DNA of 64,000 nucleotides from a candidate division FCPU426 bacterium (GCA_963719085.1 CAVRAL010000004.1:320001-384000), one strand, 5' to 3'; counted from the stretch's first letter, positions 648 to 14,000 are shown. Notes: a model not told the origin generated them from the sequence alone. Numbers and translations: made by a program.

Positions 648-1043
648 CTAGCTCTCTTTGCTCTTGGGCATCTCCACGACTTTGCCTGTGTCTTCCATTT
701 GGCAGTTGCCCTCAAAAACCGCGCCCTCTTCAATGAGAAGCGAAGGCGTGGAAAGATCGCCTTCCACCCGGGCGGTGGATTGGAATTCCAGGCGCTGATA
801 AGCCGTCACATTGCCCTTCACCCGGCCGCCGATGACGACCGTTTTGGCCGAAACATTTCCGCGGATAAGTCCCTTGGGCCCGATAATGATACCGTCTTCG
901 CTCACGACGTTTCCGTAAATCTCGCCGTCCACCCGGATGCTGTGTTTGGAGTTATAGCTTCCGCGCAAGGAAGCGTCATTGCCGATGATGGTGTCCACGC
1001 GCCCGATTCCCTTGGCCGTCGGCCCGAAAGCGAAAATTCCCAT
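648..1043 (-). CDS. Bactofilin (polymer-forming cytoskeletal protein)
   Basis: TIIG...IRVDGEIYG...IIGPKGLIRGNV.AKTVVIGGRVKGNV...VEGDL..PSLLIEEGAVFEGNC repeats; ATG at 1043 after GAAGGA. Confidence 0.92.
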   Translation of the reverse strand: MGIFAFGPTAKGIGRVDTIIGNDASLRGSYNSKHSIRVDGEIYGNVVSEDGIIIGPKGLIRGNVSAKTVVIGGRVKGNVTAYQRLEFQSTARVEGDLSTPSLLIEEGAVFEGNCQMEDTGKVVEMPKSKES

Positions 1044-1082
1044 AAAAGTTCCTTCGTTCAAAATTTCAAACAATTTTTACAT

Positions 1083-1156
1083 TGATGGACGCAGATTAAG
1101 AAAAACAAGATCTCGCCGACTTCATCATCTTCATCCGCGTTCATCTGCGTCCATCA
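1083..1156. repeat. Intergenic inverted repeat, family A
   Basis: TGATGGACGCAGAT (1083-1096) and ATCTGCGTCCATCA (1143-1156) are a perfect 14-bp inverted pair. Confidence 0.85.
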
Positions 1157-1168
1157 TTGCTAATTGCC

Positions 1169-2125
1169 TTAGTCGACTTTGGGAAGATAAGGCATGGGAT
1201 CCACGGGAATTCCATGGATACGCACCTCATAATGACAATGGCTTCCCGTACTCATGCCGGTGGAGCCCATATAGCCGATCACCTGGCCCCGCGTCACCTC
1301 ATCGCCCACCTTCACCTCGACCCGGTTGCAATGACCGTAGCGGGTGCTGAAACCGTAACCGTGCTCGATCACGACCACCCGGCCATAACCGGATTCCCAT
1401 CCGGCGTAGGTCACCAATCCATCGGCGGTGGCGTGGATGGGCGTGTTGACCTCATTGGCGATATCCACCCCCATGTGCCGTCCCGGCTCCCCGGTGAGCG
1501 GGTTCATGCGCTTGCCGAATCCGGAGGTCACCCAACCCTTCACGGGCCAGATGGAAGGCGTGGCGGCCAAAATGGAGCGCTGTTTATCGAGGAAAAAACT
1601 GATCTGCTGGAAGCTGGCTTCCTGCTGGCTGGCTTCCTGGTTGGTTTGTTTTAAATCGGCCTGCACCTTGGTCAGAAGCTGCTCGTTTTTTTCTTCCAGT
1701 AATTTGGAGAACCGGGAAGAATCCTCTTCCGTGGGCCCCCCCATGCCGTCATAGGCGAGAATGGTTTTGCGGTCGCCCAACTTCAATAGTTTGCGGAACT
1801 GGGAATCCACGCCTGCCATGCTGGACAAAAGCTGTCGGTTGGTTTGAAGCTCATCGGTAATTTCATTCATGCTGGAGCGCATGTGCTCGTCATTGAGCCG
1901 GGCCAAATGGTAATCCACGTCCTGTCCGGTCAAGAAAAGGGCCCAAGCCAGCAAAGCGGCCAAACCCAACAAGCCGCCATGAATGACGCATAAATGGGTC
2001 TTGATATGAATGGATTTTTCCCCGTCGTGGGGGATGATCATGAAAGTGATTTTTTTCTTTAAGTAAGAGCGGATGGGATGCGGCATGAAGGTTGGAAAGA
2101 CTCCTGGTCGAGGGTTTTGGCTCAA
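1169..2125 (-). CDS. M23 family metallopeptidase with N-terminal TM and coiled coil
   Basis: PSIWPVKGWVTSGFG, HMGVD (HxxxD) and HCHYEV (HxH) motifs; start uncertain (2125 or 2086). Confidence 0.92.
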   Translation of the reverse strand: MSQNPRPGVFPTFMPHPIRSYLKKKITFMIIPHDGEKSIHIKTHLCVIHGGLLGLAALLAWALFLTGQDVDYHLARLNDEHMRSSMNEITDELQTNRQLLSSMAGVDSQFRKLLKLGDRKTILAYDGMGGPTEEDSSRFSKLLEEKNEQLLTKVQADLKQTNQEASQQEASFQQISFFLDKQRSILAATPSIWPVKGWVTSGFGKRMNPLTGEPGRHMGVDIANEVNTPIHATADGLVTYAGWESGYGRVVVIEHGYGFSTRYGHCNRVEVKVGDEVTRGQVIGYMGSTGMSTGSHCHYEVRIHGIPVDPMPYLPKVD

Positions 2126-2204: not shown

Positions 2205-2939
2205 TTAAGCCTGGCGCCCGCCCGTTTTGATGAAACGATGGGCCTTTTCAAAAAGAATTTGACGGTCGTAATCCAGGGGGATCACGTGATCGGAGCGGTC
2301 CAGATAAATCAGGTGCTTGAGCTTCGATCCCAAGGCTTGGTAGACCAAGCCGCCATTGAGGGGCGGCACCATGGAATCTTTTCGCCCTTGAAGCACCAAG
2401 GCCGGCGCCGTGACATAAGGCAAATCCTCTTCCACGTGGCGCATCAATTTTTTCAGCTCGTAAAGACTTTTCGTCGCCAAATAGGGATAGGTCTCGTGCT
2501 TCGGCGCCGAAGAGTCCAATACTCCCCCGGCCAAATTAGACGTGCGCCATTGCAGAAACCTGAAAAAGGCGATGCCGTTAAACCGAAAATCAGGAATGCG
2601 GATCGGGGCCGCCATGGAAATCACCCCGGCCACTGGAAAATGCGCCGCCAAATGCAGCGCCTGGTCGGCGCCCATGGAAAGGCCCGCCAAATAAATTTTA
2701 GAGCAGCGGCGCCGTAAAACTTCTAAGGCTTCCCGCGCGCTTTGGGACCAATCCTGCCAGCGGGTCTTCGCCAAGTCTTGAGCCGACGTGCCATGACCCT
2801 TGAGCCAAGGCCCCAGCGTGGAATAACCCTTGGCGGCCAAATAATCGCCCAGCGGTTTTACCTCCGACGGCGCTCCGCTGAGTCCATGGAGCAGCAGAAT
2901 CCCGGTTTTTCCCTTGCGGGCCTCAAATCCAACGCGCAT
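2205..2939 (-). CDS. Carboxylesterase / alpha-beta hydrolase
   Basis: LLHGLSG oxyanion loop, GLSMG nucleophile elbow, GRKDSMV Asp, SDH His. Confidence 0.9.
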   Translation of the reverse strand: MRVGFEARKGKTGILLLHGLSGAPSEVKPLGDYLAAKGYSTLGPWLKGHGTSAQDLAKTRWQDWSQSAREALEVLRRRCSKIYLAGLSMGADQALHLAAHFPVAGVISMAAPIRIPDFRFNGIAFFRFLQWRTSNLAGGVLDSSAPKHETYPYLATKSLYELKKLMRHVEEDLPYVTAPALVLQGRKDSMVPPLNGGLVYQALGSKLKHLIYLDRSDHVIPLDYDRQILFEKAHRFIKTGGRQA

Positions 2940-2984
2940 CGGATGCTCCTTGTCTTAAGAACTGCCAGCAAAACCTTTTTACAT

Positions 2985-3058
2985 TGATGGACGCAGATGA
3001 ACGCAGATTTTCCGGAACATTCATTCGAACTTAAATCTGTGTTCATCTGCGTCCATCA
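2985..3058. repeat. Intergenic inverted repeat, family A
   Basis: TGATGGACGCAGATGAACGCAGATTT (2985-3010) pairs with AAATCTGTGTTCATCTGCGTCCATCA (3033-3058): 26 bp with one G-U. Confidence 0.9.
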
Positions 3059-3089
3059 TTGTTCAATGAATTTGAGTTTTATTGGGGCC

Positions 3090-3674
3090 TTAGCCTTTCG
3101 CGGCGGCGGCCGCGTCCATTTTCTCGATCTGCTGGATCGTGAATAAAATCTCGTCGTCCGTGGGCCGGTCCTGCGGATTTTGTCCCACGTACTTGAAACG
3201 GATTATTTTGGTGGGATCGATAATGACGACCGCGGGGCGGCTGATGTCTTTCCCATCGTGGCCCTGGGGATGCCGCACGCCGAAGGCGTCGATCAGCTTT
3301 AATTGGGTATCGGCCAAAAGCGGGAAAGGAAACCGCCATTGCTCATTGAAGGCCGCCGCGTCCTCGACCGGATCCACGCTCACGGCCGCGAGGGCCGCAT
3401 GCAGGGTTGAGAATTTCTCGAAATCATCCTTCAGGTTTAAAAGCTGGTTTTGGCAGGCCGAGCACCAATGGCCCCGGTAAAAAACGAGCACCAAATACCA
3501 TCCGGGTTGAAGATCGGTGGATTTAAAGAAACGGCCGTCGCAGTTCTCCAGGGTAAAATCCGGGCATTTTTGCCCCAGCCCCACCACGCCGGCGGTCGAG
3601 GAGACCGAGGAACTGGGGCCGCAACCCGCCAGTAATAGTGAGACCGCCGCCGCGAAAACGAGGGTACGCTTCAT
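3090..3674 (-). CDS. Peroxiredoxin-like (AhpC/TSA, redoxin) lipoprotein
   Basis: Lipobox LLAGC; PDFTL, FYRGHWCSAC (CxxC), AVSVD, FPLLAD, RPAVVIID. Confidence 0.85.
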   Translation of the reverse strand: MKRTLVFAAAVSLLLAGCGPSSSVSSTAGVVGLGQKCPDFTLENCDGRFFKSTDLQPGWYLVLVFYRGHWCSACQNQLLNLKDDFEKFSTLHAALAAVSVDPVEDAAAFNEQWRFPFPLLADTQLKLIDAFGVRHPQGHDGKDISRPAVVIIDPTKIIRFKYVGQNPQDRPTDDEILFTIQQIEKMDAAAAAKG

Positions 3675-3783
3675 AAGGATAAAACCTTTTAAGTCGGGAT
3701 TAAAAACGCGAAAGGATTTGGAAGCCCCGCGCTTTCTTCAAAACCTATTCTATCGCATCCCGGCGTTAAATTTTCAAAATCCG

Positions 3784-3813
3784 TTGACAAACCCCGGAAG
3801 CCCTCCCAATAAT
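3784..3813 (+). promoter_or_regulatory. Putative sigma70 promoter of leader peptide 1 (TTGACA-N18-AATAAT)
   Basis: Perfect -35 at 3784-3789, AATAAT at 3808-3813; same architecture as 8653-8682. Confidence 0.65.
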
Positions 3814-3849
3814 ATTTTTCGTTTCCGATCCGCTTCCAAGGCGCGTGGC

Positions 3850-4137
3850 ATGTTCCGATTCCGAAAAATTTCATTTTTCATCGCCTTGCTGGGCCTCACC
3901 GCCTTCGCGTCCCTTTCGGTGGCCGAAAACTTCCATCACCACGGCGACCTGGAAAGCCACGATGACTGCGCCATGTGCAGCTGGCAACAGGTCGATTCCA
4001 AGGCCACCGTCTCCGCCGCTCCCCCACAACTGATTCCGCTATTCGCGGTTTTGGTTTTAGAGATTGTTTCTTTCCCTTGGTTTTCCTTCCGGATGGTGCA
4101 AGCTTCCGGCAGGTCCCCCCCGGTTTCCATCGCTTAA
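3850..4137 (+). CDS. DUF2946/CruR-like metal-sensing leader peptide 1 (95 aa; HHH, CxxC, C-terminal GRSPP)
   Basis: C-terminal part of track ORF 3517..4137 from ATG 3850: hydrophobic N-terminus, ENFHHH, CAMC, GRSPP; colinear paralog at 8711..8998. Confidence 0.85.
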   Translation: MFRFRKISFFIALLGLTAFASLSVAENFHHHGDLESHDDCAMCSWQQVDSKATVSAAPPQLIPLFAVLVLEIVSFPWFSFRMVQASGRSPPVSIA

Positions 4138-4280
4138 ACTTCAATTGAGCGGGAAAACCGGGAACAGGTCTTTTTTAACCCTTTCCGTCTTTTCGTTTTA
4201 AAACCCTTAAAAGCTTGTTCCTGTTTCTTTTCCCCCGGAAACCACGCTTGCGCGTGGTTTCTAAATCCCTTTTTAATTTT
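4119..4280 (+). promoter_or_regulatory. Putative attenuator: alternative stems plus a 10-bp hairpin followed by T-rich tracts
   Basis: 4145-4162 can pair with 4119-4137, while the overlapping 4151-4168 can instead pair with 4214-4234; perfect hairpin GAAACCACGC-TTGC-GCGTGGTTTC at 4238-4261. Confidence 0.6.
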
Positions 4281-4355
4281 TAAATCGACCAAGACCGGCC
4301 TCGAGGTTCAAAAACCTTAAGGTTTGGCCCTAAATCCTATTTGGAGGATATTTCA

Positions 4356-6785
4356 ATGAGATTCGTTTCCCGATGGTTTTGGCTTTTGTTTCTGTGTTGG
4401 GGTTTTAATGTAAGCGTCGCCCGCGCGACAGTTGACGGCGCCATTTCAGGCACCGTTTTGGATGACAAAGGCGTCGCGGTGCCCAACGCGAAGGTGACGA
4501 TTACGGGCAACGGCACTGAAAAGGACGTGGTGTCTTCAGCGACAGGAACTTTCCAGGCCTTTCCCTTAACCCTGGGGGATTACCAGGTTCAAGTTCAAGC
4601 GGACGGCTTTAGCCCCTATCAAGAAACCGTCGCGGTTTCGGGCGGCACCTCGTCCCTGGCGGTGGTCTTGCTGCCATCCGGTGAGATGCAAATGACGGTG
4701 AAAGCCAAACATCTGGTCTCCTCCGCGCCCGACAGCAGCCGGGCGTTAAATAAAGATGATATCGCCCAACTGCCGGGAGGCTCCACGACGAACCTTCCGA
4801 AATTGCTTTATACCACCACAGCCGGATTCGTGGAGGGTGACTTCGGGCAAGTCTTTACCCGGGGCAACCACGCCAACTTGCAATACCAGATCGACGGCAT
4901 CCAATTGCCCGATTCGGTGGGCGGCTCCTTTGGGGAAGCCTTCACCCCGGTCAACATCGACCACATGGAAATTTTAACCGGCGGCCTCCAGCCGGAGTTC
5001 GGTTCCCGCATGGCCGGCGTGGTGAATATCGTCACCAAGTCGGGCGCGATCACTCCCGGCGGTGAAATCGGCCTCAGCTACGGTTCCTACAACCAGACCG
5101 CCGATTACGCCAGCTACGGAGGGTCTGACGCCTCCGGAGCTTTTCATTACTACCTCTCGGCCAATTCCTTTTCCACCGACCGCGGGTTGGACACTCCCGC
5201 GCCGGCCGACATCAACGCCGACCAGAATGGCGGGAGCGAACAGGCGGTCCATGACAAAAGCTACGGCACGGACGCTTTCTTGAAGCTTGATTGGGTGGCG
5301 GACAACTCCAACAAGTTTGACCTGATCGCCTTCAGCGAGGACAAATTTTTCCAAATCCCGGACTATCCCAGTTCCTTTGATCCGGGCGGACCCAACTTCC
5401 AGTATTTCCTCAGTTCGGGGGATATCTACGGGAACGTCGTGAACTACGTTCCTTCCACCACCAACGACACCCAAGCCGAAGCCAACAAGTACATTGAATT
5501 AGCTTGGCGGCATAACTTCGGCGACGATTCTTTCCTTCAAATAGCGCCCTATTGGAAGGAATCCAACATCACCTTCACCAACGATCCGCAGGACGATCTG
5601 GCGGCGGCCTATAACACGCAGATCCAGGATCAGAACTCGGGGACGCCGTTCAGTATTTCCTCTTTCTCCGAGGACCGCACCAGCGACAACTATGGGACGC
5701 AGGCGGATTACACCTGGCACGCGGACGCCAACAACCTGGTCAAGATCGGGGGACAGGCCCTTTTGACGCAATCTTCCGGCCCCGTTTCCGTTACGGAAGC
5801 CAATTTTGACGGAACCCCGGGAGATCCGATCACGGTGGATGGCAGTGGGGATAATTCTACCGATGTGGGTTACCAAGAAGGCCTGTACGTCCAGGACGAA
5901 ATGGATCTGGCCAAGGGGCTGGTCTTAAGCGGGGGCGTGCGCTTTGACGCCATCCAATTTACCTTCCCGGGAGCGAATTCCAACGACAGCATGCTGGAAC
6001 CCCGGGTCGGCCTCAGCCTGCTTCCGGCCGAAGGTACCAAGATCCATTTCTTTTACGGCAAGATGTTCATGCCGGCCCCGCCGGAGGATCTGCGGGACAC
6101 CTTCGTCAATTTGGGCCAAGGGAACAGTTTGACGCCTTACGACCTCAAGGCCGAGAAGGACGATTATTTCGAAACCGGAATCGCCCAGCAGGTGGACAAC
6201 CAACTGTTCACCTTGAACGCTTACTACAAATACGCGTTGAATATGCTGGATGAAAACCAGCTTTTGAACACGGCTATCGCCCAACCCTTCAACTTCGCCT
6301 CCGGCTACGCCTATGGCCTTGAATTTTCCATGCGCGGGGAACTGGCCAAGGACTGGACTGATTTCGCCAATTATTCCTACGAGATCGCTAAGGGGCAGGG
6401 AATCAGCGGCGGTATCTTCGCCTTCCCCCCGGGGACCGATTTCGAACCTGGCGTCTACCAGTTCCTGGACCATTGCCAAATCCACACAGCCAACGCCGGA
6501 TTGACCTATAACCCCGGTGATATTTGGCTCACCGCCGAAGGTCTTTTTGGAGGGGGTTTGAGCACCGGCCCGGACAACACCTTGAGACTGCCGTCCCATT
6601 TCACCATGGACGCCACGGTGGGTTACGCCTTTCAGAAAGACAGCGGCCTATCAGGGATGAAAGCCAGCCTGGACGCGCTGAATCTCTTTGATAACCCCTA
6701 CACCATCTTCGTCGCCAATGGTTACAACGGGAATCATTACGAAAACGGACGGGAATTCATCTTCCGTTTGGCCAAGGTGTTCTAA
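4356..6785 (+). CDS. TonB-dependent outer-membrane receptor with N-terminal carboxypeptidase-regulatory-like domain
   Basis: Signal peptide, ISGTVLDDKG..VPNAKV domain, plug motifs (YQIDG, ILTGG..PEFG....GVVNIVTK), NLFD and terminal Phe; RBS GGAGG before ATG 4356. Confidence 0.93.
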   Translation: MRFVSRWFWLLFLCWGFNVSVARATVDGAISGTVLDDKGVAVPNAKVTITGNGTEKDVVSSATGTFQAFPLTLGDYQVQVQADGFSPYQETVAVSGGTSSLAVVLLPSGEMQMTVKAKHLVSSAPDSSRALNKDDIAQLPGGSTTNLPKLLYTTTAGFVEGDFGQVFTRGNHANLQYQIDGIQLPDSVGGSFGEAFTPVNIDHMEILTGGLQPEFGSRMAGVVNIVTKSGAITPGGEIGLSYGSYNQTADYASYGGSDASGAFHYYLSANSFSTDRGLDTPAPADINADQNGGSEQAVHDKSYGTDAFLKLDWVADNSNKFDLIAFSEDKFFQIPDYPSSFDPGGPNFQYFLSSGDIYGNVVNYVPSTTNDTQAEANKYIELAWRHNFGDDSFLQIAPYWKESNITFTNDPQDDLAAAYNTQIQDQNSGTPFSISSFSEDRTSDNYGTQADYTWHADANNLVKIGGQALLTQSSGPVSVTEANFDGTPGDPITVDGSGDNSTDVGYQEGLYVQDEMDLAKGLVLSGGVRFDAIQFTFPGANSNDSMLEPRVGLSLLPAEGTKIHFFYGKMFMPAPPEDLRDTFVNLGQGNSLTPYDLKAEKDDYFETGIAQQVDNQLFTLNAYYKYALNMLDENQLLNTAIAQPFNFASGYAYGLEFSMRGELAKDWTDFANYSYEIAKGQGISGGIFAFPPGTDFEPGVYQFLDHCQIHTANAGLTYNPGDIWLTAEGLFGGGLSTGPDNTLRLPSHFTMDATVGYAFQKDSGLSGMKASLDALNLFDNPYTIFVANGYNGNHYENGREFIFRLAKVF

Positions 6786-6819
6786 AGCGAAAGGTTGGGT
6801 TTAAAAGCGACAAGGCAGC

Positions 6820-6846
6820 GCCGGTTGGGTTCAGAGCCCAACCGGC
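6820..6846 (+). terminator. Strong hairpin after the TonB receptor (terminator-like or mRNA-stabilising)
   Basis: GCCGGTTGGG (6820-6829) / CCCAACCGGC (6837-6846); no clean U-tract follows. Confidence 0.45.
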
Positions 6847-6991
6847 ATCTTGCCCTTCTATAAAAAAATAAATTGATAGGCAGGTATCCCTTTAGGGGTT
6901 GCCGTTTTCAAAATCCAGATTCAGCGTCATTTTTGGGTACCACCCATATGACGCCGGATGTGGTTTTTGATAACAATCAAAAGGAAAAGAA

Positions 6992-7627
6992 ATGGAACAG
7001 ATTTTCGACGGTTTTAAATTTATCTTCCGGGGCGGCTTCATGATGCTTCCCCTGCTGGCCTCCTCCCTGATCGCCCTAACGGTCATCATCGATCGTTGGA
7101 AGGTTTTCCAAAAGCAATACAAGACGCCCGAGGGCTTCCTGCTCAGGGTGTTGAAAAAAATAAGGGAAGGCAACGTGGCTGAGGCCCAAAAGGATTGTGA
7201 TGGAAAGGCCTTCCCCGTAGCGGCGGTTTTGAAAGCGGGGATCACAAACCTCAAGAGTCCCGCCGCCGAAATGGAAATCGCCATGAAGAACGAGGCCGAA
7301 AGCTGGATTCCGGTTTTGGAAAAAAGGATTCATGTCCTGGATACCATCATCACCATCGCTCCCCTGATGGGCCTCTTGGGAACTATCCTGGGAATGATGG
7401 GCTCCTTCAAGGTGCTGACCCAAAGCGGGGTGGACGACCCCTATTCGATCACCGGCGGCATCGCCGAGGCCTTGATCGCCACGGCCACCGGCATCATCAT
7501 CGCCGTGCTTTGCGTGATCGCGATGAATTATTTCAACACCCTGGTCAAAAACCTGATTTACGAGATGGAGTCGGCGGCCTCCTACCTGCAGGAAACCCGC
7601 ATGGGCTTTGAACGGGGTAAAAAATAA
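6992..7627 (+). CDS. exbB: ExbB/TolQ/MotA proton channel
   Basis: GGFMMLPL, TIITIAPLMGLLGTILGM, GGIAEALIATATG. Confidence 0.92.
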   Translation: MEQIFDGFKFIFRGGFMMLPLLASSLIALTVIIDRWKVFQKQYKTPEGFLLRVLKKIREGNVAEAQKDCDGKAFPVAAVLKAGITNLKSPAAEMEIAMKNEAESWIPVLEKRIHVLDTIITIAPLMGLLGTILGMMGSFKVLTQSGVDDPYSITGGIAEALIATATGIIIAVLCVIAMNYFNTLVKNLIYEMESAASYLQETRMGFERGKK

Positions 7628-8037
7628 TGCAGGTACGGCAAAAACCCATCAAACGAATCCGGATTGAGATCATCCCCATGATCGACGTCATTTTTTTCCT
7701 GTTGGTTTTTTTCATGGTGACTTCCCTGGCCATGACCCGCATCAACAGCATCAAGGTAGTGCTCCCGAAGACTTCAGGAAAAGCGGAAAATCCCCGGCAG
7801 AACGTCATCTTGACGGTGAAAAAAGACGGCTCCCTGCTCATTAACAAAACGCCTGTGACCTTAGACACCTTGGGAAGCCAGTTGGTGAGCGTGATGCAGG
7901 CCGACCCCCAAGGCGTGGTCATCGTGAACGCCGACGAGGGCGCCCCCTATGGCCAAGTCGTTCAAGCCATGCAAAAGGCCAAGGACGCCGGAGTACGGAA
8001 ATTCGCGTTGGCCGCAGAAGCCGGGGAAGGAAAATAA
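7627..8037 (+). CDS. exbD: ExbD/TolR biopolymer transporter
   Basis: IEIIPMIDVIFFLLVFFMV; NADEGAPYGQVV. Confidence 0.93.
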   Translation: MQVRQKPIKRIRIEIIPMIDVIFFLLVFFMVTSLAMTRINSIKVVLPKTSGKAENPRQNVILTVKKDGSLLINKTPVTLDTLGSQLVSVMQADPQGVVIVNADEGAPYGQVVQAMQKAKDAGVRKFALAAEAGEGK

Positions 8038-8039
8038 CC

Positions 8040-8615
8040 ATGCCGATAATCCGCCTGGATTCAAATACGGAACCTCTCGTCCGGTCAGCCGGACTCGCCA
8101 TCGGCGTGGAATTTCTTTTTTTTCTGGCTCTAGGGCTAGGTCATTTGTCCCTTTTTCATAACCGCTTCGACGACGCGGTGGATGCCCAAATCGTGCAGTT
8201 ATCCGACGCTCATTTGTCCGGAGCCCAAGCCACTAGTCCCGATGATGATGTGGTTTTTAACCCCCGGCACAAACCCAAGCCGGCCAAGAAACCAACCCCT
8301 CCCAAAACCGAGCAAAACCAAGTGGACGCGGGCCCAGACCTGGGGCCCACCCACGGGCCAGTCGCGCTCTACGCGCCCCAACCCGTCATCCCCTCCTATT
8401 TAAGGGATCAAAACCTGAAGACCAGCGTGGTGATTGAATTTTTGGTCACAGCGCAAGGCCAAGTCACTTGCCGGCTTTTGGAATCCAGCGGGAGCGACGA
8501 GCTCGACGCCTTGTCGATCCAAACCGCCGAAAAATGGCGGTTCAAGCCCGCCGCCCAGGACAATGTACCCCTCGATTCCAAAACCCGATTGCGCATTTTA
8601 TTTGAGGTGGATTAA
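8040..8615 (+). CDS. tonB: Energy transducer TonB
   Basis: TM segment with His, Pro/Lys-rich linker, TonB C-domain (SSGSDELD...KWRFKPA); follows exbBD. Confidence 0.85.
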   Translation: MPIIRLDSNTEPLVRSAGLAIGVEFLFFLALGLGHLSLFHNRFDDAVDAQIVQLSDAHLSGAQATSPDDDVVFNPRHKPKPAKKPTPPKTEQNQVDAGPDLGPTHGPVALYAPQPVIPSYLRDQNLKTSVVIEFLVTAQGQVTCRLLESSGSDELDALSIQTAEKWRFKPAAQDNVPLDSKTRLRILFEVD

Positions 8616-8652
8616 CCCTGTTTTTCACTCAACCCATGGTCCGTCCGCCGGA

Positions 8653-8682
8653 TTGACAGTGCCAGCTCCGCCCTCTAATAAT
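8653..8682 (+). promoter_or_regulatory. Putative sigma70 promoter of leader peptide 2 (TTGACA-N18-AATAAT)
   Basis: TTGACA 8653-8658, AATAAT 8677-8682; GCCCTC in the spacer as in the first copy. Confidence 0.65.
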
Positions 8683-8710
8683 GGCCCCCATCCAGAACTG
8701 GAAGAGGGCC

Positions 8711-8998
8711 ATGCGCGGTTTCAAACGTTCTTTTTTAAGATGGGGAATTTTATTTTTCCTTCCCTTCCTGATTTCAATCATGACCGTGGAAACATCCCAC
8801 CATCACAGCCCTCTGGAACCCCAGGACAACTGCTCCATTTGTAGTTGCCAGCAAACTGGTTCCCAAGCCGCCACCTTGCCACTGCCGCCGACATTGCTTC
8901 CAACCTTTATCACGGGTTTATTACTTCTAACTTTTTCTTTTATCATTCCCCCGTCCCTCATATCCTCCACGGGCAGGTCCCCGCCCGTCCTCCTGTAA
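8711..8998 (+). CDS. DUF2946/CruR-like metal-sensing leader peptide 2 (95 aa; HHH, CxxC, C-terminal GRSPP)
   Basis: ATG 8711 after GAAGAGGG; hydrophobic N-terminus, ETSHHH, CSIC, GRSPP; same length and spacing as 3850..4137. Confidence 0.85.
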   Translation: MRGFKRSFLRWGILFFLPFLISIMTVETSHHHSPLEPQDNCSICSCQQTGSQAATLPLPPTLLPTFITGLLLLTFSFIIPPSLISSTGRSPPVLL

Positions 8999-9033
8999 TT
9001 TTTCGAGCCGTTTTGAAAAAATACACAGGAGGA
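8988..9033 (+). promoter_or_regulatory. Anti-Shine-Dalgarno hairpin sequestering the RBS of the porin gene
   Basis: TCCTCCTGT (8988-8996) is the exact complement of ACAGGAGGA (9025-9033); inner stem TTTTTCGA/TTGAAAAA. Confidence 0.75.
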
Positions 9034-9037
9034 ATTC

Positions 9038-10144
9038 ATGAGAATTCATCGTTTTTATTTTATTTTGGCCTCCCTTTTGGGAGTGGCTTTCGCCGGGGGG
9101 GCCCAGGCCCAAACCCGGTCGATTATCTCCAACTTGGCCAATCCGGCCATCGGCATGAGCGCGTTGTTTTTGGGCCAAGCCGCGCCGAACATCGCCGCCC
9201 CCTACGGCATTAAATTCCAGGAAGCCGAATTGAGCGTCATCTCCACCGTGGATCCTTATTGGACCCTGGCCGCCAATTTGGTGTTTGAGGGCGATCCTAA
9301 AACCGGCATTCCCGACTCGGTGTCGGCGGAAGAAGCCTACGCCACCACCGACGCCATCCCGGGAATCACGTTCAAGATCGGGGAAATCCGGGCGGATTTC
9401 GGAAAACACGGACTGCTTCACACCCACGCTTTTCCCTTCATCCAAGCCCCCATCATCATGGGCAACAGCGTGGGCCAGGAAGGCTTCAAGGACGCGGGCG
9501 TGGAAGGCGCTTGGCTGACGCCCCTGCCTTGGTACTGCGAACTGACCCTGGGCGCCTACGGATCGGTGGCGGCCTCGGGCGACCATCCGCTGAATTTCGC
9601 CGACGCCTCGCACGACAATATTCCCTACCTGATCCATCTCAAAAATCTTTTCGACGTGGATGACGACACCACGATGGAATTAGGCGGATCGGCCCTGACC
9701 GGCATGGGTGACGACGGCCTGCACCACGCCGTTTATGGCGCGGACCTGACTTTCCGCAATGTGCCGCTTCAACAATCCAACCAACGGGGATGGATTCTGC
9801 AGGGCGAGTACATCAAAAAAGTTTCCTTTGATGACAACGCCTATAACCAGGAAGCGGACGGCTGGTATACCTCGTTCCAATATCGCTTGGCCCAGGAATG
9901 GTGGACCGGCATCCGGATGGAAGAGTGCTATAACGCCACACCGGACCTGGATGTGGACTCCACGGAAAATTCACTCGCCGGCAACGTCAAGCGCGCCTCG
10001 TTCAATGTGGCTTGGCTGGCGTCGGAATTTTCGCAGGTGAAGGCCGAATATAGCTACGCCCAAAACGACGCGGGCCAGGGCGATAACCGGGTGATGCTGC
10101 AGTTTAACTATGTGATCGGATTCCATCCGCCCCACTCTTATTAG
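9038..10144 (+). CDS. Outer-membrane porin-like protein associated with metal uptake
   Basis: Signal peptide, amphipathic beta strands, His motifs LHTHAFPF and C-terminal IGFHPPHSY; lies before ABC substrate-binding and permease genes. Confidence 0.7.
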   Translation: MRIHRFYFILASLLGVAFAGGAQAQTRSIISNLANPAIGMSALFLGQAAPNIAAPYGIKFQEAELSVISTVDPYWTLAANLVFEGDPKTGIPDSVSAEEAYATTDAIPGITFKIGEIRADFGKHGLLHTHAFPFIQAPIIMGNSVGQEGFKDAGVEGAWLTPLPWYCELTLGAYGSVAASGDHPLNFADASHDNIPYLIHLKNLFDVDDDTTMELGGSALTGMGDDGLHHAVYGADLTFRNVPLQQSNQRGWILQGEYIKKVSFDDNAYNQEADGWYTSFQYRLAQEWWTGIRMEECYNATPDLDVDSTENSLAGNVKRASFNVAWLASEFSQVKAEYSYAQNDAGQGDNRVMLQFNYVIGFHPPHSY

Positions 10145-10195
10145 GACGGAGCGGATTCAAAAAATTTGTGGTTTAAAAAATCAAGGAGAAAACTC

Positions 10196-11110
10196 ATGAA
10201 ACGTCTAAGCGCTTTTTTAGTGCTGCTCTTCGGTTGCTTGATCGCCTTGCCGGCTTTCGCGGATTTGAAAGTGGCCACCTCCCTTTCAGATTTGGCGTCG
10301 GTGGCCCAATTCGTGGGAGGCAAACACGTCACGGCCATCAGCCTTTGCAAAGGTTATGAGGACCCGCATTTTGTCCCGGCCAAACCCAGTTTGATGAAGG
10401 CCATCCAGGACGCCGATGTATTCGTGTCCGTGGGGCTGGAGTTGGACGGGGGCTGGCTGCCCTTGGTCATCCCCGGGAGCCGCAATCCCAAAATTCAGCC
10501 GGGCGCCGAAGGCTTCGTTGACGCCTCGGAAGGCATTGATGTTTTGGATAAGCCCGTCGGCACCGTCAGCCGGGCGGAGGGGGACATCCATCCTTTGGGC
10601 AACCCGCATTACTATGGCGACCCGAAAAATCTGGAAATCGTGGCGGATCATTTGACCCAAATTTTTTCGGATTTGGACCCGGCCAACGCGGCGGACTACG
10701 CGGCCAACGATAAGGCCTTCGACGCGAAAATGGACGCGTCGATCAAGGGCTGGGAGGCTCAGCTGGCTCCTTATAAGGGAAATTCGCTCGTGTCCTACCA
10801 CGAGAATTTCAAGTATTTCACCAACCGGTTTGGCTTGAAGGTTTTCGGAACCGTGGAGTCCAAGCCCGGCATTCCGCCGAGCCCCCGATACCTATCGGAC
10901 ACGGCCGACGCGATGAAAACCGCCGGAGTGAAGGTCGTTATCTACCAGCCTTACTATGACGCCGACGAGGCCAAGCAATTAGCGTTGAAAGCCGGGGCCA
11001 CCGCCTATGAGATTCCTAATGAAGTGGGCGGCGTTCCGGAGGCCAAGGACGTTTTCTCGAAATTCGACTTCATCGTGTCGACTTTAGTTCAAGCCTACGG
11101 GGGAAAATAA
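10196..11110 (+). CDS. Metal (Zn/Mn) ABC transporter substrate-binding protein, ZnuA/TroA family
   Basis: EDPHF, GNPHYY, LDPANA..Y..N, SYHENF.YF, KPGIPPSP motifs; ATG 10196 after AAGGAG. Confidence 0.92.
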   Translation: MKRLSAFLVLLFGCLIALPAFADLKVATSLSDLASVAQFVGGKHVTAISLCKGYEDPHFVPAKPSLMKAIQDADVFVSVGLELDGGWLPLVIPGSRNPKIQPGAEGFVDASEGIDVLDKPVGTVSRAEGDIHPLGNPHYYGDPKNLEIVADHLTQIFSDLDPANAADYAANDKAFDAKMDASIKGWEAQLAPYKGNSLVSYHENFKYFTNRFGLKVFGTVESKPGIPPSPRYLSDTADAMKTAGVKVVIYQPYYDADEAKQLALKAGATAYEIPNEVGGVPEAKDVFSKFDFIVSTLVQAYGGK

Positions 11111-11115
11111 GCGCC

Positions 11116-11940
11116 ATGTCCAACTTTATCGAGGTGATGGGTCTTCCGATTTTGGCCTGCTTGCTCCTCGGCCTCATCCTGCCCTCCTTGGGCCAGCATG
11201 TGCTGGCCCGGGGAGTCATTTTCGTGGACTTGGCCTTGGCTCAAATAGCGGCGCTGGGACAAAGCGTGGCCTTTTTGTTGGGGGCCGACCCCCATGATCC
11301 GGCCACCTACTATTGGTCCCTGGGATTCACCCTATTGGGCGCGGCCCTTTTTAGTTTTTTGTGGGACCGCAACCATTCGGTTTTTCAGGAGGCCTTTATC
11401 GGAATCGCCTTCTCCCTGGCGACGGCGGCCACCCTGTTGGTCTTGTCCAATTCCCCCCACGGCGCCGAGCACGTGCAGGGAACCTTGAGCGGGGAAAGCC
11501 TGGGCTGGGTCGCTTGGAAAGACGTGGCGCTGATGGCGGTCATTTACGCCCTCGTCGGCCTGTTTCTTTTTTTCAACCGCCAGACCTTGGCGCTTTGTTC
11601 CGCCGACCCCAAAGAGGCCCAAAAGCAGGGACTGTCCCTGAAACTTTGGGATTTCCTTTTTTACGCGGGCTTCGGGCTGGTCGTGACCGACGCGGTTCGG
11701 GTTTCGGGCGTGCTGGCGGTCTTTTCGTTTCTGATCGTGCCGATCGTCTGTTCGACCCTTTTGGGCATGAAAGGAAGACCGCGGCTTTACCTGGCCTGGG
11801 GATTGGCGTGGCTGGCTTCGATCATCGGGTCCGGGTTTTCCTATTGGAAGGACTGGCCCATGGGCGCCACCATCGTGTGCGTATTCGGGCTATCGGTGAT
11901 TGTTATCTCGGCCTTCACAAGAATGAGAAACGTCGAATAG
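11116..11940 (+). CDS. Metal ABC transporter permease, ZnuB/MntB family
   Basis: G.HVLARGVIFVDLALAQ, EAFIG, GVLAVFSFLIVP, WPMGATIV. Confidence 0.9.
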   Translation: MSNFIEVMGLPILACLLLGLILPSLGQHVLARGVIFVDLALAQIAALGQSVAFLLGADPHDPATYYWSLGFTLLGAALFSFLWDRNHSVFQEAFIGIAFSLATAATLLVLSNSPHGAEHVQGTLSGESLGWVAWKDVALMAVIYALVGLFLFFNRQTLALCSADPKEAQKQGLSLKLWDFLFYAGFGLVVTDAVRVSGVLAVFSFLIVPIVCSTLLGMKGRPRLYLAWGLAWLASIIGSGFSYWKDWPMGATIVCVFGLSVIVISAFTRMRNVE

Positions 11941-11948
11941 GCAAAAGC

Positions 11949-12094
11949 TTGAAACACAGAGTGACACGGAGTTACACAGGGCGAGGATTAAAATTATTTT
12001 TGATTAAGCCATTAATTTTAAACATTGGGGGAACCTAAAGCTTTGGTTCTCAAAAAGATTTACTCTGTGTAACTTTGTTACCTCCGTGTTTCAA
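11949..12094. repeat. Intergenic inverted repeat, family B, between convergent genes
   Basis: TTGAAACACAGAGTGACACGGAGTTACACAGGG (11949-11981) vs CTCTGTGTAACTTTGTTACCTCCGTGTTTCAA (12063-12094); related copy at 30564-30653. Confidence 0.8.
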
Positions 12095-12099
12095 AAGCC

Positions 12100-12381
12100 T
12101 TAATATTTTGCCTTCGCCTTGGTCTTCTTCTTTTTGGCCGGCGCTTTTTTGCGACGCTTGGCGGCCTTTTCCGCTTCCGACGGTGGCAGGGCTAACTGCG
12201 GCTTGGCGGTTTCGGGCTTGTCGGCCGCTTTCGGCTCTTCTTTAACGCTTTGGCCGCTGGAAGCCTTTTTAAACTCGTCCATGAACTGGCCGATGGCCTT
12301 GCCCAATCCCGGAAGCTTGTCTTTTCCAAAAAAGAAAAGGGCCACGACCAAAATGAGCAGTATTTCTTCAATGCGTCCCAT
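12100..12381 (-). CDS. tatA: Twin-arginine translocase TatA/E subunit
   Basis: MG..EILLILVVALFFFG..KLP.LGKAIG....EFKKA. Confidence 0.85.
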   Translation of the reverse strand: MGRIEEILLILVVALFFFGKDKLPGLGKAIGQFMDEFKKASSGQSVKEEPKAADKPETAKPQLALPPSEAEKAAKRRKKAPAKKKKTKAKAKY

Positions 12382-12482
12382 GCGAAAAACTCCTGAGTTT
12401 TAAGATGGGGCCATTCTATTCAGTCTTCGGCCACTTCGCCAGTGGAATGGATGTTTCCTTCCCATCCTTTTGACGAAACCTA

Positions 12483-12884
12483 TTAAAGCCCTAAAAATAA
12501 TTTCAATCGACGGCGAATTTCATCTCTTACTTCCTGGAAGCTTTTTAGCTTTTCTTCATCCGTCGTGGCTCCCTTTCCAGGGTCGGGCAGCGGCCAATGA
12601 ATTCTTTCAGCCTTCCCTAAGAAAACTGGACATTCTTCCTCGGCGCAAAGGGTGATAACCGTATCCACCGTCGCCGGGTCGATCTCGGCCACGGACTTGG
12701 AAGTCTGGCCGGAAATATCGATTCCGATTTCGGCCAGGGCCTTGATTGATAAAGGATTCACGAAAGACGGCTTGGAACCGGCGCTTTGAATCAGGCCTTT
12801 ATCGCCCAAAAGATGCTTGGCGATGCCTTCCGCCATCTGGCTGCGGCCCGAATTGGCCACACAAAGAAAAAGAATTTTTTTCAA
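12483..12884 (-). CDS. arsC: Arsenate reductase, thioredoxin-coupled LMW-PTPase fold
   Basis: [17 protein letters not shown] (CX5R), SAGS, VITLC....CP resolving cysteines, HWPLPDP. Confidence 0.9.
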
Positions 12885-12887
12885 GGC

Positions 12888-13571
12888 CTACTCCTTGTTG
12901 TTTTTCAAGTTGGCGGGCGCCAGCCGGATCGACTCATAAAACAACGCGGCAAGAACCGCCCCAAGACAAGGCCCTACCACATAAATCCACGTCCCATTCA
13001 AATGTCCCTCAAAGACCGCGGGGGCCAGGGACCGTGCCGGATTCATGGAAGCCCCCGTGACCGGCCCACCCACCCAGGCCGCTAGCATGACAGTTCCGCC
13101 AATCGCCGCGCCCGCCATGGTGCCGACCGCGCGGGTATCCGTGGCCACCGCCACAATCACGAACATCAGAAAAAAGGTCAGGATCATTTCCCAGCTCAAA
13201 GCTTGCCCATTCGGCACGGCGGGAATGGTGGCTCCATAAGAAACACCGGATGGAAGAATCATTTTGAGGATGCCGATAGCGGCAAAAGCCCCGATGAGTT
13301 GAGCGGCCCAATAGGCCAAAACCTGCTCAAAGGGAAAGTGGCGGGCTACGGCGAAGGCCAAGGTCACGGCGGGATTGAAGTGGGCTCCCGAAATATGCCC
13401 CACCGCGTAAATCATGACCGCCACCGCCAACCCAAAAATAACCGGTACGACCGCCTGCGAAAGGGTCCCCGGAAACCGCTCCGCGACCATGAGGCTTCCG
13501 CATCCGGCGAAGACGAGGGTAAAGGTCCCCATGGCCTCGGCCAGGGACTTCTTAAGAAGGATATTCTTCAT
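12888..13571 (-). CDS. MIP family aquaporin/aquaglyceroporin (probable arsenite channel)
   Basis: Two NPA motifs (ISGAHFNPAVT, GASMNPARS); lies immediately upstream of arsC; start 13571 or 13577. Confidence 0.92.
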   Translation of the reverse strand: MKNILLKKSLAEAMGTFTLVFAGCGSLMVAERFPGTLSQAVVPVIFGLAVAVMIYAVGHISGAHFNPAVTLAFAVARHFPFEQVLAYWAAQLIGAFAAIGILKMILPSGVSYGATIPAVPNGQALSWEMILTFFLMFVIVAVATDTRAVGTMAGAAIGGTVMLAAWVGGPVTGASMNPARSLAPAVFEGHLNGTWIYVVGPCLGAVLAALFYESIRLAPANLKNNKE

Positions 13572-13607
13572 CTCCAACTAGCTCGCGTTTGCAAGTTGAT
13601 CCCCCTA

Positions 13608-13982
13608 TTACTTTTTCTTCCCCACCCACTCGCCCAAAACCGACTTCAATTTCTTTTTCATGCCCTGAAGTTCCTGGATTTTCCCCTCAAACTCATCGAT
13701 CTTGGCGGTGAACAAGTCCACCGTCAGGTCGCAACAGGGGCCCAGACCCTTGTCCCCGCAACAGGTGATTTTCTTTATTTCTTTGAGCGTCAGCCCCATG
13801 GCTTGGGCTTTGCGGATGAACTCCAATTGGTCCACCGCTTCCTTGGGATAAATCCGAAAGCCGCCTTCGCTCCGGGAAGGCTCGTTCAGCAGCCCCTCTT
13901 TTTCGTAATAGCGGATCGTATCGATGGACGTCCCGCTTTTTTGGGCCACTTGACCGATTTGAAGGAATGGATTTTTTTTCAT
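13608..13982 (-). CDS. MerR family transcriptional regulator
   Basis: IGQVAQKSG.SIDTIRYYEKEGLL...RSEGGFRIY...FIRKAQAMG.TL.EI; coiled-coil C-terminus. Confidence 0.93.
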   Translation of the reverse strand: MKKNPFLQIGQVAQKSGTSIDTIRYYEKEGLLNEPSRSEGGFRIYPKEAVDQLEFIRKAQAMGLTLKEIKKITCCGDKGLGPCCDLTVDLFTAKIDEFEGKIQELQGMKKKLKSVLGEWVGKKK

Positions 13983-14000
13983 GGCGTCAGCTCCCAAACG

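Follow-up and report, generated by a model that had tools for sequence, protein, structure and literature searches.

Candidate metal-sensing arrest leaders ahead of two zinc-type import units in a candidate division FCPU426 bacterium

Described arrest-peptide sensors and the two putative leaders of the window

Some bacteria couple metal availability outside the cytoplasm to gene expression through small exported proteins that arrest their own translation. Here we compare the described cases with two upstream open reading frames, uORF1 and uORF2, each encoding 95 amino acids (aa) and each heading a metal-import unit on a 64,000-nucleotide (nt) stretch of DNA from a candidate division FCPU426 bacterium (GCA_963719085.1 CAVRAL010000004.1:320001-384000; this whole stretch is called the window). 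With a probability of about 0.62, we consider both to be cis-acting leader peptides of the CruR/CutF kind that respond to a metal, most likely zinc, and they are best read as a His-rich RSPP/RAPP branch of these nascent-peptide metal sensors that heads zinc-type import operons. To our knowledge, extracytoplasmic sensing of a metal by a nascent peptide has so far been demonstrated for copper only, in CruR and CutF; if the reading is true, this branch would extend such sensing to a second metal.

CruR (Bp2923, Bordetella pertussis), the DUF2946 prototype, is the small exported first gene product of a metal-import operon headed by a TonB receptor, from which its gene is separated by 162 nt. The protein carries CxxC followed, after 45 residues, by RAPP three residues before the stop codon, a spacing kept within 1-2 residues in >2000 DUF2946 proteins, and copper relieves the arrest, thereby allowing Rho-dependent termination (PMC9426467; citations here and below refer to parts of the respective texts). 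Ribosomes stalled on CruR hold the two Pro codons in the P and A sites. Robust arrest that resists EF-P is a property of the cores RAPP and RGPP; the cores RSPP and RDPP permit arrest in part and are depleted from proteomes, Ser at the x of R-x-PP is only partly permissive in ApdA/ApdP, and RSPP was recovered in earlier random arrest screens (PMC12992588). ApdA, ApdP, SecM and the members of the RAPP/RGPP uORF census are small secreted or membrane proteins encoded ahead of regulated genes; their C-terminal R-x-PP core and their position recur in the two window ORFs, and TonB-receptor and metal-related uORF classes are listed in the census. RSPP leaders fall outside this census by Fujiwara et al. 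because it took RAPP and RGPP only (PMC12992588).

CutF of Rhodobacter capsulatus is a DUF2946-like nascent exported peptide with CxxxC and PPP motifs, whose stalled ribosome melts a stem that masks the next gene's Shine-Dalgarno (SD) sequence; copper induces the stalling and thereby turns on a detoxifying oxidase (bioRxiv 10.1101/2025.02.05.636593). On the side of the cargo, the closest described systems are ZnuABC, with a ZnuA-type binding protein and a ZnuB-type permease, and ZrgABCDE, in which an ATP-binding cassette (ABC) ATPase and permease occur with a DUF3299 protein, often beside a TonB receptor; both have the Zur repressor at the promoter, the zrg operon of Vibrio being Zur-regulated and ZrgE being its DUF3299 protein (PMC9817125).

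The corresponding elements of the window are the following.

3784..3813, plus strand: sigma-70-like promoter of unit 1 (TTGACA, 18 nt, AATAAT; 11/12 matches)
3850..4137, plus strand: uORF1, 288 nt, putative 95-aa leader peptide with HHH at 29-31, CxxC at 40-43, GRSPP at 87-91 and the tail VSIA before the stop
4111..4122, plus strand: R-S-P-P codons of uORF1, where arrest is predicted; by analogy with CruR, the P site would hold the first Pro codon (4117-4119)
8653..8682, plus strand: sigma-70-like promoter of unit 2 (TTGACA, 18 nt, AATAAT; 11/12 matches)
8711..8998, plus strand: uORF2, 288 nt, putative 95-aa leader peptide with HHH at 30-32, CxxC at 41-44, GRSPP at 88-92 and the tail VLL before the stop
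8975..8986, plus strand: R-S-P-P codons of uORF2, where arrest is predicted; by the same analogy (PMC12992588), the P site would hold the first Pro codon (8981-8983)

A sequence-only reading of this DNA had pointed to two 95-aa ORFs with a common helix-HHH-CxxC-RSPP pattern, and the ORF list and the raw sequence bear out both ORFs at 3850-4137 and 8711-8998. A script run on the translations likewise confirmed the pattern, placing RSPP at residues 88-91 in uORF1 and 89-92 in uORF2, with 4 and 3 residues, respectively, between PP and the stop; in both ORFs the interval between HHH and CxxC is 8 residues and that between CxxC and the Arg exactly 44. Each protein starts with a basic N-terminus followed by a hydrophobic stretch (mean Kyte-Doolittle value 1.8-2.1 over 15 residues), and in both the hydropathy profile shows hydrophobic segments at about 6-25 and 56-82 flanking a hydrophilic His/Cys loop. 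With 39% identity over 76 residues (BLASTP, E 8e-13), uORF1 and uORF2 are paralogues. The placement of the first Pro codon in the ribosomal P site at the predicted stall is inferred from the CruR toeprint (PMC12992588).

The likeness to CruR covers the position as a small, putatively exported first gene of a TonB-receptor operon, the distance of about 45 residues from CxxC to R-x-PP, the 3-4 residues left between R-x-PP and the stop, the long intergenic leader (162 nt for CruR vs 218 nt for uORF1) and the expected logic, in which metal would release the stall and switch import off. The window ORFs differ from CruR in length (95 aa vs 145 aa), in having H-x-H/HHH 8 residues before CxxC and a second hydrophobic segment between CxxC and the arrest site, in the arrest core (RSPP instead of RAPP), in scoring below the Pfam cut-off and in their neighbours, which are zinc-type (ZnuA, ABC-3, DUF3299) and not copper-type. 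From CutF they differ in the motifs, in that the sequence facing the SD is made of uORF2's own last codons, and in the cargo, which is import machinery, such that a regulatory sign opposite to that of CutF is expected. ZnuABC and ZrgABCDE are matched in the kinds of cargo gene, yet the units of the window start with an arrest-type leader behind a near-consensus promoter, and the ZnuA unit includes an outer-membrane porin and lacks an ATPase gene. The window holds a compact pair, a short, simple SD-masking stem vs a long, possibly Rho-type leader, both behind near-consensus promoters.

Kinship with DUF2946, as suggested in the sequence-only reading, was examined against Pfam and holds, though weakly. 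Pfam DUF2946 (PF11162) scores 17.5 bits (E 0.0073) with uORF1 and 16.2 bits (E 0.018) with uORF2, short of its gathering cut-off of 23.7 bits. The match spans the region from the His cluster to R-x-PP (profile positions 50-117), and it recurs among relatives: 14/15 close relatives match DUF2946 weakly (best E 0.0013), and in a wider set 55/119 sequences match at E <= 0.01 (best 2.3e-5). The weak but consistent match, the spacing and the operon position speak for the kinship and the subthreshold scores against it; uORF1 and uORF2 are best read as distant relatives of CruR and CutF with a variant arrest core that stay below the formal Pfam threshold. Zinc, ZnuA and porins are nowhere named in the main text of PMC12992588; His, zinc, nickel and ZnuA go unmentioned in the CruR paper (PMC9426467), and no description of a zinc-linked or His-rich DUF2946 branch was found in the literature outside subscription journals and the supplements of PMC9426467 and PMC12992588. 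Censuses based on Pfam or on RAPP/RGPP would miss part of this leader class.

The two promoters are the only sites with 11/12 matches (at 3784 and 8653) within 3400-12400, a region containing 5 promoter-like sites in total, not above the number in shuffled sequences (mean 4.2). At the promoters of five related loci (L034, L035, L037, L038, L040) the -35 hexamer lies inside a perfect 13-nt palindrome, TTGACA-T-TGTCAA, about 55 nt 5' of the leader ATG, which looks like the operator of a dimeric repressor; the second half of the palindrome is missing from both window promoters.

Conservation of the leader family and its operons

The pattern common to the two ORFs is that of a conserved gene family and did not arise by chance. 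A word-indexed search of 5.8 billion proteins returned 11 homologous clusters for uORF1 and 2 for uORF2, all of 94-98 aa and none carrying a name. Invariant columns of the close-family alignment include H30, H31, C40, C43 and G87-R-S-P-P91, and the segment between CxxC and GRSPP varies freely. Run over whole genomes, the close-family profile had matches in 22/24 further genomes from the GTDB family of the window (1-6 copies per genome) and in 0/16 taken from other families in the phylum. Counting the genome of the window itself, a wider profile was positive in 52 of the 99 phylum genomes (27/30 within the family and 24/68 outside it). Searched against 1.84 billion cluster representatives, the profile retrieved 114 proteins at E <= 1e-3, and a profile scan of genome contigs gave 5 loci only.

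Across 125 retrieved proteins the spacing from CxxC to the Arg was 42-47 residues in 117, with values of 45 (48 proteins), 44 (44), 46 (10), 43 (9), 42 (4) and 47 (2), the motif being missing in the remaining 8; the arrest core was RAPP in 59, RSPP in 47, RGPP in 6, RDPP in 4 and RCPP in 1. Adding the two window ORFs and removing 8 sequences that were truncated or devoid of R-x-PP gave an alignment of 119 divergent sequences, in which H31, C40, C43, R88, P90 and P91 are invariant and H29 is kept in at least 90%, so that the conserved ligand set consists of H-x-H plus CxxC. The 47 distinct copies from related genomes have a spacing of 44 (22 copies), 45 (20) or 46 (5) and the cores RSPP (27), RAPP (17), RGPP (2) or RDPP (1). 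All six Arg codons are in use among these copies, and Cys and Pro codons also vary; as the motif is kept while its codons change, selection acts on the peptide.

The genes that follow the two leaders in the window are given below.

4356..6785, plus strand: TonB-dependent receptor with N-terminal CarboxypepD_reg (barrel 8e-27, Plug 2e-5)
6992-7627, plus strand: ExbB (Pfam 3e-31)
7627-8037, plus strand: ExbD (Pfam 2e-31)
8040-8615, plus strand: TonB (TonB_C 3e-12)
9038..10144, plus strand: porin-like outer-membrane protein, 368 aa, 16 strands, invariant His 128, 130, 363 and 366
10166..11110, plus strand: ZnuA-family periplasmic metal-binding protein (Pfam ZnuA 1e-45)
11116..11940, plus strand: ABC-3 (ZnuB-type) permease (Pfam 1e-27), with no ATPase gene after it

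For these genes, the order receptor-exbB-exbD-tonB and porin-binding protein-permease given in the sequence-only reading agrees with Pfam, except for the porin, whose assignment comes from a structure model. The receptor likely starts at ATG 4356 behind GGAGGA, the ORF caller having chosen TTG 4341; a PDB sequence search found no solved relative of it, and NCBIfam was likewise uninformative. The porin-like protein has no Pfam family (best BBP2, E 0.022). Its AlphaFold2 model, built with 22 homologues, has 16 strands, a predicted local distance difference test score of 83.9 and a predicted template-modelling (TM) score of 0.81, and Foldseek aligns it to the 16-stranded porins OprP/OprO, OmpT and OmpK36 (E ~1e-11, TM 0.5-0.6). 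H128, H130, H363 and H366, arranged as H-x-H and H-P-P-H, are invariant across the 22 homologues down to 24% identity, which suggests a metal-selective channel. An ABC ATPase gene was never seen inside the porin-ZnuA-permease unit, in the window or in the related loci inspected, and the permease must therefore borrow an ATPase encoded elsewhere.

To classify the cargo of the 47 distinct leaders, we took loci of up to 20 kb around matches in related genomes and identified the first homologue within 1.5 kb downstream by blastx. It belonged to the porin family, followed by ZnuA and an ABC-3 permease, in 22 cases; to the TonB receptors, followed by ExbB-ExbD-TonB, in 13; and to the MacB-type ABC ATPases, followed by an FtsX-type permease, a 160-aa protein and 2-3 DUF3299 proteins, in 8. 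Single leaders preceded DUF3299, MerC or an ABC-3 permease, and one gave no match. A transport gene directly follows the leader in 45/47, indicating that the position at the head of metal-import operons, claimed from the window, is conserved. The profile search suggested in the sequence-only reading for uORFs with HHH, CxxC and R-x-PP recovered relatives that keep the motif, a spacing of 44-46 in 47/47 and the transporter synteny. Tandem leaders recur as well: one locus (L034) has the same order as the window and another (L038) has three leaders in one stretch, so the twin arrangement is found in other genomes too; two of the database homologues (P0009 and P0012) also come from contigs of equal length.

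More distant leaders were sampled from metagenomes with a 12-sequence subset chosen by the pattern HHH[DE]DG..H.DC..C, a biased choice that yielded 37 loci of RAPP-type relatives; the loci L083, L102 and L104 were omitted from the gene classification because they were redundant or of insufficient length. In 13 loci a homologue of the window porin (E 3e-3 to 7e-30) comes first after the leader; genes for ZnuA and/or ABC-3/ABC ATPases are found downstream in 6 loci and a TonB receptor in 3, and in 1 the leader is immediately followed by ZnuA. Given that these distant leaders have the same partners, the leader-porin-ZnuA-permease module is older than the lineage of the window.

RNA elements between leaders and cargo, and the proposed mechanism

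Four elements lie between the predicted arrest sites and the first cargo genes.

8988..8996, plus strand: 9-nt anti-SD, the complement of 9025-9033, formed by the last sense codons of uORF2 together with the stop codon's first base
8999..9020, plus strand: small hairpin enclosed by the anti-SD:SD helix (minimum free energy (MFE) fold, RNAalifold)
9025..9033, plus strand: SD region of the porin gene, with GGAGG at 9028-9032, paired with 8988-8996
4138..4355, plus strand: leader between uORF1 and the receptor gene, 218 nt, including a tract rich in C and poor in G (4170-4247) and a hairpin of 11 bp (~4237-4262)

In unit 2, where only 39 nt separate the stop of uORF2 from the porin start, the MFE fold of 8975-9046 contains a perfect 9-bp helix between 8988-8996 and 9025-9033, an SD-shielding stem like that of CutF, predicted here in silico. 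In an alignment of 22 leaders, 85% of the cells of this helix are paired, compared with 34-54% when the 3' partner is slid by 1-3 columns; 20 cells have changed on both sides (shuffles average 5.9), and the covariation score lies above 500/500 shuffles. Single-sequence folds of the 22 leaders, as we read them, pair the SD with the uORF tail in 18, with the S-P-P codons in 2 and with downstream sequence in 1, one being unclear. The pyrimidine motif is kept despite differing tails (LL, PL, SL, AS) and a shifted reading frame, and this independence of residues and frame argues for a constraint on the RNA. The probability that the SD is paired is at least 0.9 in 17/20 leaders vs 7/36 other GGAGG genes of the same loci.

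Ribosome-footprint folds were calculated for 20 of the 22 leaders, 2 being left out where PP lay outside the fragment. With the first Pro codon in the P site, the anti-SD of the window would sit at +7 to +15 from the P site, inside the ribosome, and holding -12..+15 around the P site open lowers the modelled pairing probability of the SD from 1.00 to 0.28. The median over the leaders decreases from 1.00 in the free RNA to 0.61 with the footprint open, the background level being 0.70. The SD-masking stem of unit 2 is well supported in silico; the switch that we model on it would resemble CutF and SecM, a lasting stall exposing the SD and a released ribosome letting the stem re-form. In TonB-receptor leaders of other genera (L037, L038, L040, L041, L042, L044) the last codons, ATCCTCCTG, show complementarity to a box, CAGGGGGAT, some 45 nt downstream. 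No conserved start codon comes after this box, and the tail therefore has different partners in different operon classes.

The 218-nt leader of unit 1 is of another type. The 78-nt segment at 4170 contains 24 C vs 8 G and 17 YC dimers and ranks among the top 0.23% of comparable segments across the 64 kb, the leader folds better than shuffled sequences (z-score -3.08), and a rho gene is present in the genome; an Rfam scan of 3400-12400 at E <= 1 gave no match. By analogy with CruR, our guess for the coupling in this unit is that a stalled ribosome might keep Rho off the C-rich leader. A different arrangement is seen in the 190-nt leaders ahead of MacB-type ABC genes (L050, L054, L055, L057, L061, L062), whose shared box, consensus AAACGGGAAAAC, lies some 10 nt past the stop and base-pairs with a second box ~110-130 nt downstream; compensatory changes occur in this pairing, and several folds put the Pro codons beside the distant SD. 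This long-range leader of the MacB class may be an undescribed leader RNA, and its version in the window has no Rfam match.

The analysis shows anatomy, conservation, synteny and RNA complementarity. In the mechanism proposed on top of these, each uORF would be made from its own strong promoter, the first hydrophobic segment would target the peptide to the membrane, and the ribosome would stall at R-S-P-P with the first Pro codon in the P site. At that point residue 90 would be at the peptidyl-transferase centre and the second hydrophobic segment (56-82) inside the tunnel; the H-x-H...CxxC cluster, 46-62 residues back and thus at the same distance as in CruR, would be out of the tunnel, at or beyond the translocon. 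The earlier proposal that the His/Cys cluster lies outside the tunnel near the translocon is reasonable on the basis of this ligand distance. When the cognate metal is scarce, the stall would last; when it is present, the His2Cys2 cluster would bind it and pull the chain, releasing the stall and allowing the ribosome to terminate. As the cargo is import machinery, the sign of CruR, with metal releasing the stall and import turned off, would be expected and not that of CutF. In unit 2 the stalled ribosome would cover the last codons of uORF2, which otherwise form the helix with the porin SD, such that translation of porin, ZnuA and permease would be unmasked as in CutF or SecM; in unit 1 it would keep Rho off the C-rich leader. 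The pair in the window may bear on how metal binding outside the membrane becomes a pulling force on the ribosome.

A more far-reaching and doubtful reading is that in this uncultured lineage the uptake of zinc or another thiophilic metal is run mainly by up to six paralogous nascent-peptide sensors per genome and not by a Zur-type repressor, each sensor forming a transient periplasmic His2Cys2 'zinc knuckle' during the R-S/A-P-P pause and each being wired to its own importer (TonB receptor, porin-ZnuA-ZnuB, or MacB-type ABC with DUF3299) by a class-specific RNA element, such as an anti-SD in the last codons of the leader or a long-range helix bringing the Pro codons to a distant SD. A His-rich branch heading zinc-type importers would also bring entire uptake regulons under this kind of translational control, one genome having several class-specific leaders. 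The genome of the window has two Fur-family genes.

Counter-evidence, the sensed metal and rival explanations

Several results weigh against reading the two ORFs as CruR/CutF-type leaders for zinc, some of them concerning the family assignment and the RNA and others, taken up below with the rival explanations, concerning the metal and the nature of the product. Both uORFs remain under the Pfam DUF2946 cut-off, and an NCBIfam scan gives no model for either. In unit 2, RNAalifold run on the same 22-leader alignment predicts the inner hairpin only and not the anti-SD:SD helix; the helix was named after the sequences had been inspected and is therefore favoured in the slide control. Most relatives have four residues after PP, so that the footprint covers the anti-SD only partly, and the modelled drop in SD pairing is modest across relatives, ending near the background of 0.70. 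In unit 1, folding the leader with the footprint open at PP or at the stop leaves the domain structure unchanged, and the pairing probability of the receptor SD is 0.62 with or without a ribosome. The hairpin at 4237-4262 has no adjacent U tract and does not count as terminator-like, its T run beginning only 8 nt beyond the stem. A long-range helix between two boxes (box1:box2) is significant in 5/11 related leaders of the MacB class (<=2/200 shuffles as good), but in the window it is not better than shuffles (33/200), nor is it significant in a locus of the same genus, L028 (129/200 shuffles). Since there was no effect of the footprint and the box1:box2 helix was not significant, an attenuator model for uORF1 was dropped.

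As for the metal, His2Cys2 is the classic tetrahedral ligand set of zinc, and the solved structures nearest to the ZnuA-family protein belong to zinc binders (AdcAII, 3cx3; Synechocystis ZnuA, 1pq4/2ov1; Lmb), with which three His align; in NCBIfam its best match is AztC, far below the cut-off, as are the scores of all equivalog models. The third operon class has DUF3299 beside an ABC ATPase and permease, as in the zrg operon. Weighing this with the neighbourhoods described below, we place zinc as the sensed metal a little short of even odds, regard some other answer as unlikely, nickel or cobalt as equally or slightly more so, and copper as distinctly unlikely. A rather improbable alternative keeps the same arrest-leader mechanism with nickel or cobalt as the metal. 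Nickel is commonly bound by a His3 stretch together with Cys; in L029 a NicO nickel/cobalt transporter gene (5297-6337, E 1e-95) lies directly after the permease, and in L061 a NikR gene (10754-11167) with a second receptor-ZnuA-ABC unit follows the leader-controlled unit, both of which count against zinc. Such neighbours were nevertheless found in just 2/37 related loci fetched, the NikR gene of L061 suggests a regulator already dedicated to nickel there, and ZnuA-family binding proteins are not usual nickel binders. Copper in the same mechanism, with the porin, ZnuA-type and TonB units importing it, is likewise rather improbable. It is the metal of family precedent, all characterised members responding to copper through CxxC (PMC9426467; bioRxiv 10.1101/2025.02.05.636593), His-rich stretches bind Cu(II) too, and AhpC_TSA genes are neighbours typical of DUF2946 copper loci (PMC9426467), one of which adjoins uORF1. 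PepSY_TM, PCuAC, Sco, YcnI and CopC, the copper-linked families reported from CruR operons, are, on the other hand, absent among the neighbours scanned, the ZnuA-family protein is closest to zinc binders, and the combination of DUF3299 with an ABC transporter points to a Zur regulon (PMC9817125).

Two further explanations dispense with metal sensing by an arrested chain. The ORFs could encode stable two-helix membrane proteins acting in trans, as a metal chaperone or an accessory subunit of the importer, with R-x-PP as a structural or cytoplasmic docking motif. Two hydrophobic segments around a periplasmic His/Cys loop would make a plausible hairpin protein, a point that also counts against the leader function, and the genes are conserved as proteins. 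We consider this improbable, as R-x-PP is found within 1-7 residues of the stop and keeps a fixed distance of 44-46 residues to CxxC across an unconserved stretch, which is the pattern of arrest peptides, complementarity to the SD of the next gene has no reason under pure trans action, and RAPP-like motifs are otherwise strongly avoided in proteomes (PMC12992588). Very improbable is a leader that senses the periplasmic thiol-redox or secretion status instead of a metal, with disulfide formation in CxxC or pulling by Sec/YidC releasing the stall. The model for CutF does invoke disulfide formation as the stall-relieving force (bioRxiv 10.1101/2025.02.05.636593), most known RAPP leaders monitor Sec/YidC (PMC12992588), and a thioredoxin-fold AhpC/TSA lipoprotein with CxxC is a recurrent neighbour; the units downstream of the leaders, however, look like metal transport (45/47 transport genes) and not like redox or secretion functions, and a redox sensor would not need the nearly invariant H-x-H beside CxxC.

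Further genes flank the two units.

3090..3674, minus strand: AhpC/TSA-family lipoprotein with a WCSAC motif, divergent from uORF1
2205-3674, minus strand: the AhpC/TSA lipoprotein together with an alpha/beta hydrolase, divergent, upstream of uORF1
12483-13997, minus strand: MerR-family regulator with a Cys-rich C-terminus, MIP channel and ArsC-like low-molecular-weight phosphatase
648-2125, minus strand: bactofilin gene and M23 peptidase gene, upstream

An AhpC/TSA gene is found upstream of the first leader in 9 related loci, and AhpC_TSA genes are among the listed neighbours of DUF2946 (PMC9426467); it is a speculation that the lipoprotein keeps the CxxC of the leader reduced. The genes at 12483-13997 are likely a metalloid or metal stress unit beside the importers. 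At L034, an M23/LysM peptidase gene lies between TonB and the second leader.

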